From the UHGV virus genome UHGV-0225830: DNA of 13,800 nucleotides. The stretch is one strand, 5' to 3'. Both the position numbers and the translations under genes were made by a program. The stretch comes from a virus. Below the pieces are notes generated by a model, which saw nothing but the letters and a program-made list of their open reading frames with translations, made no database searches and had not been told where the DNA came from. Positions 3,043-7,438 of this stretch are shown in pieces. The number at the start of each line of letters is the position of its first letter. Position 1 is the first letter of the stretch.

Positions 3043-3482
3043 AACCAAATACTACTAACGGCATTATGCTACTTTGTGATTCTGAAACGTTAGCAAACCG
3101 TATTCGTGGTTTGATGCAAGTACGTTGGCAGCAAAAGGTTCTCGTCGACTATGCTGCCCCGTTTGTTCACATTACCTGGTTGCCAGAAGCTAGTGATTTC
3201 AAAGAACGTATAACCACGAGAAGAATTAAAGAATGGTTATCGGCAATCATTAATAAACAGATTACCGTTATCAATTTCCAACTTTTCGGTACCGCTGAAG
3301 AACATGAAATCTTGAAACAGTGTTTAAGAGACTTGGGTCTTTCCTCTTCTGTTCGTGGTAGCTGCTATACGGCTTACTTTATCGGTTCGCTTGAACTGTT
3401 TAAGAATACGCTAATGCTTCAGCTAAAAGACGACTACAAACTTTTAGATAAAATCGATTTCGAATTCCCAGGCATGATTTAA
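3039..3482 (+). CDS. hypothetical protein (147 aa)
   Basis: ATG 3039 overlaps the upstream stop; SD-like GGAAGGG upstream; no recognised domain (a single H-x-T-x at residue 44 only, see rejected). Confidence 0.7.
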   Translation: MKPNTTNGIMLLCDSETLANRIRGLMQVRWQQKVLVDYAAPFVHITWLPEASDFKERITTRRIKEWLSAIINKQITVINFQLFGTAEEHEILKQCLRDLGLSSSVRGSCYTAYFIGSLELFKNTLMLQLKDDYKLLDKIDFEFPGMI

Positions 3483-3528
3483 GGAATCATAGCTTAATCA
3501 CCCCACCATTTACCTAAAGGAGCATTAA

Positions 3529-4044
3529 ATGTCAGTAAATATTAACATGAATCTTTATACTAAACGTGAACGTCAGATTCTGGCGAATCAACCTGGTGTT
3601 ACGACTATCGACGGTAAACCTATTGACCGTTTAAAAGTTATCGTTGCGCGAAATTGTCATGAACACGATTGGGACATTACCTACTTCCGTTGTTGTTCGG
3701 TCGCAAATGCGCTTACTCAACTCTCTAACTACCACTCAGGACCGCTATTAAAAGACTGGGTTTGGTTAGTGCCAAGAACACCCACAGCAATTGAGTATCC
3801 CTCTGGACTAGTTTATATTCGACCTGTCGCTTATCCAGAGCGTCTGAAAGAGTATCTTGAAGTTATCTGGAACCGTCCTCGTAAAGAGCTGGTGACGATT
3901 ATTAATTTACTGCAGCAGATCGAAATCCCCGGCGTTTCGAATTTGAAACTCACGTCTCGCGATATTAACCAGGCTTACTGGGAACTGGAGTGGACAGAAC
4001 CGAAATTCGAAAACACTAACCGTATTTTCTTGCACCGGGGGTAA
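3529..4044 (+). CDS. hypothetical protein (171 aa)
   Basis: ATG 3529 preceded by the extended SD ATTTACCTAAAGGAG (3508-3522), identical to 8641-8655. Confidence 0.75.
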   Translation: MSVNINMNLYTKRERQILANQPGVTTIDGKPIDRLKVIVARNCHEHDWDITYFRCCSVANALTQLSNYHSGPLLKDWVWLVPRTPTAIEYPSGLVYIRPVAYPERLKEYLEVIWNRPRKELVTIINLLQQIEIPGVSNLKLTSRDINQAYWELEWTEPKFENTNRIFLHRG

Positions 4045-4358: not shown

Positions 4359-4371
4359 TAAGGTGTTTTAC

Positions 4372-4761
4372 ATGATACGTTTAGTTTACTTAAAAAGGCG
4401 TTTGTCATTAAAAGCCCAACTGTTTGTTAACGAGAAAGTTAAAAACTGGCTGTGCGGTAAAAGGGTACAATATGTCGTTAAAGAAGGCGACTGGTATACG
4501 GAGGTTGTGACTTCCCCTAACGGTGAACTTATAAACGTTACTATTCGTGACGTTATGGTTAAGGTTGGTAGGGGAGGTGGTCGGTTGTTTGAATCGGAAA
4601 CTATAAGAGTCGCTGCTAAACAATTGAAAGATGGTCGAGTTATATTCAATGTTACCGCCCAGAAATACTACGACAATTTATTCGAGTGCCAACGAGCAAT
4701 GGACAGAATGACCCGTGAGATGCGAAGAATGCACATTACGGAGATCACAATAGGTGTTTAA
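4372..4761 (+). CDS. hypothetical protein (129 aa from ATG 4372; 132 aa if GTG 4363 is used)
   Basis: ORF 4363-4761; ATG 4372 is preceded by AGGTG (4361-4365); GTG 4363 is preceded by GAGGGA, which lies inside the hairpin. Confidence 0.65.
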   Translation: MIRLVYLKRRLSLKAQLFVNEKVKNWLCGKRVQYVVKEGDWYTEVVTSPNGELINVTIRDVMVKVGRGGGRLFESETIRVAAKQLKDGRVIFNVTAQKYYDNLFECQRAMDRMTREMRRMHITEITIGV

Positions 4762-5641: not shown

Positions 5642-5650
5642 TAAAAATAT

Positions 5651-5693
5651 TTTCAGATATATATTACCTAGGTGAGAGTTCAGTTACTCTCAC
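5651..5693 (+). promoter_or_regulatory. Copy 2 of the repeated promoter-like element plus 5'-leader hairpin
   Basis: TCAGATATATATTACCTAGG (5653-5672), then TGAGAGT, then an 8-bp hairpin GTGAGAGT (5672-5679) / ACTCTCAC (5686-5693); ATG 5723 is 51 nt after the 20-mer. Confidence 0.5.
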
Positions 5694-5722
5694 TTAACGA
5701 AACCATTTTAGGAGAATATACC

Positions 5723-6217
5723 ATGAACTTCACTAGACTTGATTACACTAACGAATTAGTCGACAAAGAAAAATACAAATTCACGATTGACTTGGGTTAC
5801 GGGCTGTGGGACGTAGAAAAAGATATTCTACACAAAGAATTCCGTGGGCAATTCGGTGCATTATTCTGCGCAGGATTCCGTAGAAATTCTATTGATATCG
5901 GTTATGGTGCAACACCGTATAGCGACGAAGAAATGTTTAAGCTGATAACACAGATTATCGGAACTCGTGTGGCTAAACGTTTTAATTATTCTAACGAACT
6001 TGTTTCGAAAGAACATTACAAGTTCACTGTTAGACTACCTGTTCCTCTCTTTAAAGAAGATAAGAATAGACTCTATAAAGCCCTACAAACCGAATTCGGT
6101 AAAACGCTCAAAGTAGGGTTCCGCAGTCGTAGTATCGATATCGGAATTAGCGTAGACGTGTGCAGTGACGATGACCTTTACGAATTAGTTTCGGAAGTTA
6201 TCGGAAAACACCTCTAA
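5723..6217 (+). CDS. hypothetical protein (164 aa) made of two tandem repeats of about 75 aa
   Basis: ATG 5723 preceded by AGGAG (5710-5714); the track start GTG 5672 lies inside the leader hairpin and is unlikely. The two halves align (YTNELVDKEKYKF...GFRRNSIDIG vs YSNELVSKEHYKF...GFRSRSIDIG). Confidence 0.75.
   Translation: MNFTRLDYTNELVDKEKYKFTIDLGYGLWDVEKDILHKEFRGQFGALFCAGFRRNSIDIGYGATPYSDEEMFKLITQIIGTRVAKRFNYSNELVSKEHYKFTVRLPVPLFKEDKNRLYKALQTEFGKTLKVGFRSRSIDIGISVDVCSDDDLYELVSEVIGKHL
5741..6205 (+). repeat. Intragenic tandem duplication (two units of about 74 codons, roughly 45% amino-acid identity by eye)
   Basis: Residues 7-80 and 88-161 of the 5723-6217 protein align without gaps. 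Confidence 0.7.
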
Positions 6218-6261: not shown

Positions 6262-7038
6262 ATGAAAACTATCGAGTTTAAGAATAGCAGTCTTTGGGCA
6301 TACACGCACATCATTACGAGTTTCCTGAAAAACGTTACTCCACATCTTGCTTATCAGATTTGTGGGAATGAGCTCACTATCGGTGGTTTTAACGAGGATG
6401 AATTAAAACGAGCAAAAGAGTTCATTGACGATGTTCTTCGTGGTGAAGCAACGTGTTTAGTTGCAAGTTACGTTGCTAAAGACAAAGGAAGATTAAACGT
6501 CATGGCAATTTTCAGATCGTTCTCCGAAAAAGTATACGAAGTTGAGAAGATTAGTCATACCGTTTATATTGTTTACTTTAAACGTTCGGCGGAGAAAAAC
6601 GCTGATAAAATTCTGGAGTATTTCGACTGTAACCCGGGGGAAGGTATGGATGTCTATACGCTCGGTTACGATGGGGTACCTCACCGGAATAACCTTATTC
6701 GCATTGACGAACCTTTTTCTGTCAATGACGATTCCTCGCCTATAGAGATGGTTCTGGTACACAAAGATCGTTTCGCGCATTACGACTCTGATACTATTCA
6801 ACGTGTCCTGAACAACGTTAATGTACAGTTTTCACAAACCGAGCACTTAGTACGTGCATGTCTTAGGTCTAATGGCACAACATCATTTTTCTTCGAACGT
6901 CAAACCGTTTGGCAAACTTATCTGGCTCTGATGGAAGAACTTGATAGGATCGAGCCAGTTCAGGTTGGTGCAAATTGCTTATATTGGATAAAAACAAAAG
7001 GGTTCATGAATGAAAACGCTCAATTCAGATTTGCGTGA
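6262..7038 (+). CDS. hypothetical protein (258 aa)
   Basis: ATG 6262 preceded by AAAGGA (6249-6254); overlaps the next gene by 29 nt; no recognised motif. Confidence 0.75.
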   Translation: MKTIEFKNSSLWAYTHIITSFLKNVTPHLAYQICGNELTIGGFNEDELKRAKEFIDDVLRGEATCLVASYVAKDKGRLNVMAIFRSFSEKVYEVEKISHTVYIVYFKRSAEKNADKILEYFDCNPGEGMDVYTLGYDGVPHRNNLIRIDEPFSVNDDSSPIEMVLVHKDRFAHYDSDTIQRVLNNVNVQFSQTEHLVRACLRSNGTTSFFFERQTVWQTYLALMEELDRIEPVQVGANCLYWIKTKGFMNENAQFRFA

Positions 7039-7438
7039 TTACATCCGTCAGTACCCAGCCAGTATTCCTGTACTGGCTTCGCTTACGCTTTCAGGTACTG
7101 ACGTTAACATTTTAACGGTGGAGCAGTTCCACGAGATAATAAAAACCGCCTATAACTCCATTACCGCAACGTCAGTACGTAAACGTTGCGATTATCCAGA
7201 CGGGGATTTCGGCACCGAGATGTTTACAGATTATGCGGTTGCGTTTCTGTTAGGGCGACACTGCCTCGATAAACTTAACACTGCTGTAGAAGGGGAAACA
7301 GTGACGGAAATTGTCAATGCTTGGCAGCAACGTATTCTGAACGACCCTTACTGCCGCCAAGCGTTGAAACGAATGTCCACAACGGCGATTACAAACGACC
7401 AGCGTGCTTTAGAGTTCTTTAAGCACAATTACAGCTAA
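7010..7438 (+). CDS. family B protein (142 aa), paralog of 8663-9094
   Basis: ATG 7010 preceded by AAAAGGG (6996-7002). Aligns with the 8663 protein: LN.D.R.YIR..P, YP.G..G..M, DP, MS.T in the same order. Confidence 0.75.
   Translation: MKTLNSDLRDYIRQYPASIPVLASLTLSGTDVNILTVEQFHEIIKTAYNSITATSVRKRCDYPDGDFGTEMFTDYAVAFLLGRHCLDKLNTAVEGETVTEIVNAWQQRILNDPYCRQALKRMSTTAITNDQRALEFFKHNYS

Follow-up and report, generated by a model that had tools for sequence, protein, structure and literature searches.

A tandem duplication of an 81-amino-acid domain in a probable early protein of a phiKZ-like Salmonella jumbo phage

In nucleus-forming jumbo phages, most early genes encode small proteins of unknown function, and these shape the first minutes of infection. 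Here we analysed a 13,800-nucleotide (nt) stretch of viral DNA, UHGV virus genome UHGV-0225830 (the window), which the homologies described below assign to a phiKZ-like jumbo phage related to the Salmonella phage SPN3US. At positions 5723–6217 the window holds a gene for a 164-amino-acid (aa) protein that consists of two tandem units, preceded by a motif of the kind found at early promoters, a predicted stem-loop and a ribosome-binding site. The features at this locus are as follows.

5653–5672, plus strand: early-promoter-like motif TCAGATATATATTACCTAGG (20 nt), containing the phiKZ early core TATATTAC at 5660–5667
5672–5693, plus strand: predicted 5′-terminal stem-loop of the transcript, GTGAGAGT-tcagtt-ACTCTCAC, 22 nt with an 8-bp stem, −12.2 kcal/mol
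5710–5714, plus strand: ribosome-binding site AGGAG, 8 nt 5′ of the ATG, read from the sequence
5723–6217, plus strand: coding sequence of the two-unit protein, 164 aa, stop codon at 6215–6217
5729–5971, plus strand: unit 1, aa 3–83; acidic, isoelectric point (pI) 5.3; the less constrained unit, orthologous to the single-unit allele
5972–6214, plus strand: unit 2, aa 84–164; basic, pI 8.8; the more constrained unit

Alignment of residues 5–80 with residues 86–161 (an offset of 81) gave 76 ungapped columns with 32 identities (42%). The BLOSUM62 local score of the unit self-alignment was 167, against 24.2 ± 4.4 with a maximum of 48 in 2,000 shuffles (z = 32). A reading of this locus made from the sequence alone (the sequence-only reading) had claimed an internal duplication and had named shuffled sequences as its control; the claim is borne out by the alignment and by that control. 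Both motifs that it had listed are present in each unit, the first as Y-T-NELV-D-KE-K-YKFT in unit 1 and Y-S-NELV-S-KE-H-YKFT in unit 2, and the second as GFR-RN-SIDIG and GFR-SR-SIDIG, respectively. The two tandem repeats that it had described also stand, but their length was put at about 75 aa and the measured unit is 81 aa. The protein is, to near certainty, composed of two diverged copies of one 81-aa domain. Identity between the units is distributed unevenly, at 61% and 47% in the motif-bearing β-hairpins and 27–31% in the helices, and the difference in pI between the units leaves the whole protein neutral. Because the units, aligned in frame, are only 55% identical in nucleotides overall and 42% identical at third codon positions, the duplication must be old.

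Among 5.8 billion protein clusters searched, the two-unit protein had 23 relatives, at 81–91% identity throughout. Twenty-one of the 23 were full-length homologues (20 of 164 aa and one of 162 aa); all of these begin with MNFT, and the reading frame is kept in every one (21/21). For the six alleles with DNA (15 pairwise comparisons), the ratio of non-synonymous to synonymous substitution rates (dN/dS) was 0.09–0.16 at a dS of 0.36–0.69, with values by unit of approximately 0.17 for unit 1 and 0.10 for unit 2. Given the AGGAG site, the 21 full-length homologues and the low dN/dS, positions 5723–6217 form a real gene, and it is near certain that this gene encodes a functional protein under purifying selection. 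A longer reading in the list of open reading frames (ORFs), initiated at a GTG at 5672, was rejected: its start falls within the hairpin predicted at 5672–5693, and it finds support in none of the homologues. Exact look-up returned no record of the window protein's exact sequence; the nearest, in contig L030, is 98% identical.

Next, we considered the DNA upstream of the gene. An exact second copy of TCAGATATATATTACCTAGG lies at 2119–2138, and the surrounding 30-mers (5650–5679 and 2116–2145) are 93% identical, so the element that the sequence-only reading had called copy 2 of a promoter-like element is a real repeat with an exact 20-mer inside it. None of the shuffles of the window gave two matches to TCAGATATATATTACCTAGG, even with three mismatches allowed. 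Jumbo phages of the SPN3US-like group, with hosts such as Salmonella, Erwinia and relatives, have the motif in exact form (L013–L049). The 20-mer TCAGATATATATTACYTAGG, in which one position may be C or T, has 40 sites in 37 matching stretches of IMG/VR jumbo-phage contigs of 220–246 kb and occurs in several copies per genome (5 matches in a contig of 240,413 bp and 2 in one of 243,050 bp). At nearly every site the layout is the same: an A/T-rich stretch, the motif, a hairpin starting with G(T/G)GAGA, a ribosome-binding site and an ATG 40–70 nt downstream. The mean free energy of the 43 distinct segments that follow the motif was −7.5 kcal/mol, as against −2.55 kcal/mol in shuffles, and the 3′ arm of the stem-loop covaries with the 5′ arm between motif instances.

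The core TATATTAC is listed as the phiKZ promoter (PMC7058600, Table 2), and TCAGATATATATTACCTAGG fits the published consensus for 201phi2-1, OBP and N1M2 (PMC7058600). According to a review, AT-rich motifs centred near −10 precede the early operons of all jumbo phages with RNA polymerase genes; where transcripts have been profiled, these motifs are the early promoters, and its authors ascribe them to the virion polymerase (PMC7598289). With the motif centring near −10, transcription would start near 5672. Because it lies directly 3′ of TCAGATATATATTACCTAGG with its phiKZ early core, the two-unit gene probably heads an early transcription unit, and we consider its early expression likely. In SPN3US, the motif is followed immediately by the homologue of a 143-aa gene (8663–9094 in the window), and in the window lineage the two-unit gene and the gene after it are interposed between the promoter and a 142-aa paralogue (7010–7438) of that gene. 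The two-unit gene shares with the early genes behind phiKZ-type promoters a motif containing TATATTAC, a small size and an unassigned role; predicted promoters of this type also precede ORFs of unknown function (PMC7058600). It differs from them in that tblastn found no member of its family in phiKZ, SPN3US or any other deposited phage genome. The motif and the 5′ hairpin together could help to locate candidate early operons in SPN3US-like phages. Separately, contigs L010 and L012 end 35 and 72 nt upstream of the two-unit gene, at the repeated promoter element, probably by an assembly break at the repeat or at a strain-variant boundary.

A search for single-unit homologues, which the sequence-only reading had proposed, yielded one. 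A unit profile built from 17 distinct half-sequences and run against 1.84 billion representative proteins matched three clusters: the family of the two-unit protein itself, P0024 (E = 9e-29) and P0025 (E = 3.2e-4). P0024 is an 88-aa single-unit protein and the sole close relative outside the family among the proteins searched; a further search with P0024 for other single-unit alleles found P0024 alone. In the sister contigs L005 and L006 it occupies the exact slot of the two-unit gene, and it shares with that gene the promoter, the hairpin, the ribosome-binding site and the domain. It differs in having one unit rather than two, in a terminator-like hairpin of its own and in being far more diverged than the flanking genes, which in L005 and L006 are 91–100% identical to those of the window. 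The hairpin (GGGTAAG-ggattct-CTTACCC, followed by a T-rich run) lies after P0024 at 7830–7856 of L005, and the two-unit allele in the window is without it. P0024 is 56% identical to unit 1 and 45% identical to unit 2. A three-way comparison found 22 positions exclusive to P0024 and unit 1, as against 5 and 5 for the other pairings; because P0024 groups with unit 1 in this way, unit 2 is the outgroup. By this grouping, either the P0024 lineage would have lost the second unit, or unit 2 would derive from an already diverged copy.

Structure prediction, also proposed from the sequence alone, was carried out for the full protein and for one unit, and the element order repeats in both units. The full-length model (mean predicted local distance difference test score (pLDDT) of 75, predicted template modelling score (pTM) of 0.55) contains the order β-β-α-β-β-α twice. 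The one-unit model, built from an alignment of the halves that is more diverse, has the same order at a pLDDT of 84.7 and a pTM of 0.75. The unit is predicted to adopt a common two-layer α/β sandwich, and on these models no structural family membership can be claimed for it. BFVD, a collection of predicted viral structures, held no match to the protein at E ≤ 1e-3 (TM-scores of about 0.3), and a profile search of Protein Data Bank (PDB) sequences gave chance-level matches only (E ≥ 0.18). The PCD/DCoH family (Pfam PF01329), with its DCoH-like fold, was considered as a candidate; neither Pfam (E ≤ 0.1) nor the PDB profile search gave a sequence match to it. T4 Arn, a small early anti-restriction protein, scored at background level with 11% identity and was missing from the list of the 60 best matches to the full model; we treat the likeness as a lead only.

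The searches for wider relatives point to a narrow family. The two-unit protein matched no family in Pfam and no NCBIfam or PADLOC (anti-phage defence) profile at E ≤ 0.1, tblastn found no relative in 50,697 deposited phage genomes, and the gene is absent from SPN3US and from the Erwinia relatives that keep the flanking layout. PHROGs gave one weak match, phrog_24800 of unknown function (E = 0.0087, 17 bits, residues 110–152), with no stretch passing alone. Among all six-frame ORFs of the window, a hidden Markov model (HMM) search for paralogues of the unit recovered the two-unit gene alone. A local family of small α/β paralogues, suspected by eye, was rejected on that search and on hhalign comparisons with 20 neighbouring proteins, all of which gave P ≥ 0.05. 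The same 20 window proteins served as controls for P0025, a 494-aa protein with five tandem repeats of about 102 aa from a Candidatus Peregrinibacteria genome. Its profile match is spread over four stretches, and hhalign of the unit against its repeats gave P = 1.6e-4 (probability 50%, 63 columns, 21% identity). P0025 resembles the two-unit protein in its tandem repeats and in its unassigned function, but its repeats are longer, number five rather than two and come from an unrelated organism; it is possibly a remote relative of the unit. Followed to its genome as a functional clue, it gave nothing on function. Within the databases searched, the 81-aa domain is without annotated relatives and its family is lineage-restricted.

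The features of the gene allow us to propose a role for its product. We suggest that transcription from a promoter of the virion-packaged RNA polymerase would place the protein in the first minutes of infection, and that it would be a non-virion, non-structural accessory despite its location among tail-fibre genes. The existence of the one-domain allele suggests a homodimeric ancestor, a one-domain protein whose form would persist at this locus in a sister phage; the two-unit protein would then be a covalent, asymmetric pseudo-dimer with specialised halves, one acidic and one basic. Because the two motif-bearing hairpins are almost completely conserved, the β-sheet that they form may be the working surface or the interface between the units, and a partner would be bound through its conserved face. 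The early promoter and the accessory distribution make a host macromolecule of takeover or counter-defence the most probable partner. A pseudo-dimer binding a symmetric target had been put forward by the sequence-only reading. The pseudo-dimer is plausible, as the duplication is real and a single-unit homologue exists; the symmetric target is unsupported, as the units differ in sequence, charge and constraint. Their identity of 42%, pI of 5.3 versus 8.8 and dN/dS of about 0.17 versus 0.10 argue for specialised halves rather than equivalent ones. We give an even chance to the account as a whole, an early, lineage-specific accessory protein forming a pseudo-dimer with a host partner, and regard the binding of a host partner by a pseudo-dimer as tentative.

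Several points weigh against this account. The case for early expression is the promoter motif, the packing between the units is poorly determined in the full-length model (pTM 0.55), and P0024 is known from two contigs only, of neighbouring sequencing runs and with identical DNA; it could be a rare secondary loss instead of the surviving ancestral form. Nor does the protein appear to evolve as in an arms race. At the closest loci, the neighbouring genes have a dS of 0.13–0.37 (mostly 0.13–0.25) and a dN of 0–0.05, and the two-unit gene, with a dS of 0.35–0.40 and a dN of 0.051, is about twofold above them in both measures. Positive selection on the protein was rejected, as dN/dS is low everywhere and the excess divergence is found equally in dS. 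Because dN and dS are both about twice those of the neighbours, and because the allele has been replaced in L005 and L006, the divergence looks like allele exchange by recombination.

Other roles can be weighed against that of a host-directed pseudo-dimer. The protein may instead be a pseudo-dimer that binds nucleic acid, in which an exposed β-sheet with conserved aromatic and basic residues (YKF, GFR) would contact DNA or RNA of the phage or the host. One candidate ligand would be the 5′ hairpins conserved among the early transcripts. We judge this role improbable. Somewhat less probable still is an accessory of tail-fibre or virion assembly, for example a chaperone. Such a role would explain the site of the gene, in a cluster flanked by gp37/gp38-like fibre or adhesin genes and by DUF7941 proteins; in SPN3US, the genes that hold the DUF7941 position, 3′ of the small-gene cluster, have virion structural annotations. 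However, the small-gene cluster itself is annotated as hypothetical rather than virion structural in SPN3US, an early-type promoter motif precedes the two-unit gene, the gene is absent from the SPN3US and Erwinia relatives with the same flanking layout, and Pfam and PHROG profile searches revealed no likeness to any known fibre chaperone. A dispensable ORF without a specific function, carried as a passenger in a mosaic accessory region, would fit the very narrow family and the turnover at the locus, where the next gene is swapped, a 280-aa gene is variable and the allele itself has been replaced. It is very unlikely in the face of the strong purifying selection (dN/dS of 0.09–0.16 at a dS of 0.36–0.69), the frame maintained in all 21 full-length homologues, and the promoter, hairpin and ribosome-binding site that are intact in every allele examined. 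Least credible is a fused α-like (RPB3/RPB11-like) dimerisation platform for the phage multisubunit RNA polymerases, which lack α subunits: the structural match has a root-mean-square deviation of 6.9 Å and a score no better than many unrelated matches, the more confident unit model is without this match near the top, the gene is limited to one sub-lineage and has a one-unit allele although polymerase subunits are core genes, and no α-like subunit is listed in the purified phiKZ non-virion polymerase (PMC7598289).

In the host-directed reading, the protein would be of a familiar kind, a small phage protein made early and derived from the duplication of a domain. The findings suggest no new biological principle. 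It is conceivable, though doubtful, that the 81-aa unit founds an undescribed domain family of early jumbo-phage effectors that act as homodimers or asymmetric pseudo-dimers against a target of host takeover or defence. If that were true, the polymorphism in unit number of the two-unit gene, and likewise of the 377-aa gene described below, would represent ongoing adaptation to the host target. The near-identical phage backgrounds that carry a one-domain or a two-domain allele would offer a natural experiment for the step from dimer to pseudo-dimer and for a target search.

The identity of the phage comes from its neighbouring genes and from related contigs. The 103-aa and 143-aa genes near the two-unit gene have homologues of 25–50% identity in SPN3US, other Seoulvirus and Erwinia jumbo phages. 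Two jumbo-phage contigs with homologues of the two-unit protein (89% and 98% identical) encode PhiKZ_MCP (Pfam, E = 3e-209) and phiKZ_IP internal head proteins (E = 2e-57), and Seoulvirus is classified in the Chimalliviridae. On the basis of these observations, we assign the window to a phiKZ-like jumbo phage. It is an SPN3US-related Salmonella phage of about 224 kb, of the Chimalliviridae. Metagenome contigs of up to approximately 225 kb, some of them complete-looking, carry the two-unit gene. Several homologues (P0007, P0008, P0009, P0011, P0019 and P0022) bear source labels of Salmonella enterica isolates and other copies are metagenomic; one homologue cluster has 419 member sequences, and contigs with the gene reach 223–225 kb. 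Assemblies of Salmonella isolates thus seem often to include a lytic-type phiKZ-like jumbo phage, as a result of a carrier state or of contamination.

The gene order in the window is that of SPN3US, in which tail and fibre genes precede about 12 small hypothetical genes, and structural paralogues come next. DNA-level similarity to deposited phages is confined to the first 328 nt of the window. This segment (1–328) has 89–93% nucleotide identity to the gene for the tail-fibre adhesin gp38 in T4-like phages of the genus Krischvirus (RB49, JSE, Phi1), and gp37/gp38 Pfam domains occur in the upstream genes of sister contigs; from these matches, the phiKZ-like jumbo phage appears to have acquired its fibre tip recently, and the tip to be of T4 type. 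The mosaic nature of the region is shown by a variable gene of about 280 aa and by a swapped gene after the two-unit gene. The former, of 275–281 aa, lies between the 147-aa and 171-aa genes in L001–L006, L009 and L011 (6914–7756 in L001) and is absent from the window (3482–3529). The gene 3′ of the two-unit gene encodes 258 aa in the window, L004, L005 and L006, and a different gene of 157 aa is found there in L001–L003 and L009–L012.

A second repeat protein, of 377 aa, is encoded in the same operon at 7460–8593 on the plus strand. It contains tandem units of about 113 aa (residues 105–217 and 221–333), with a duplication score of 202 (z = 35.6 relative to shuffles). In L011, the orthologous protein (7476–8237) has 253 aa and a single unit, so two genes of one early operon vary in unit number among sister phages. 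The 377-aa protein is flanked on either side by the 142-aa and 143-aa genes, which both match phrog_8484 (E = 2e-15 and 4e-20) and have homologues of 25–27% identity in SPN3US, phiEaH2 and others. Last, a 132-aa protein encoded upstream of the two-unit gene (4363–4761, plus strand) matches the HNH endonuclease family phrog_9508 weakly (E = 0.004); its L011 orthologue is only 39% identical, and the flanking genes are much closer.
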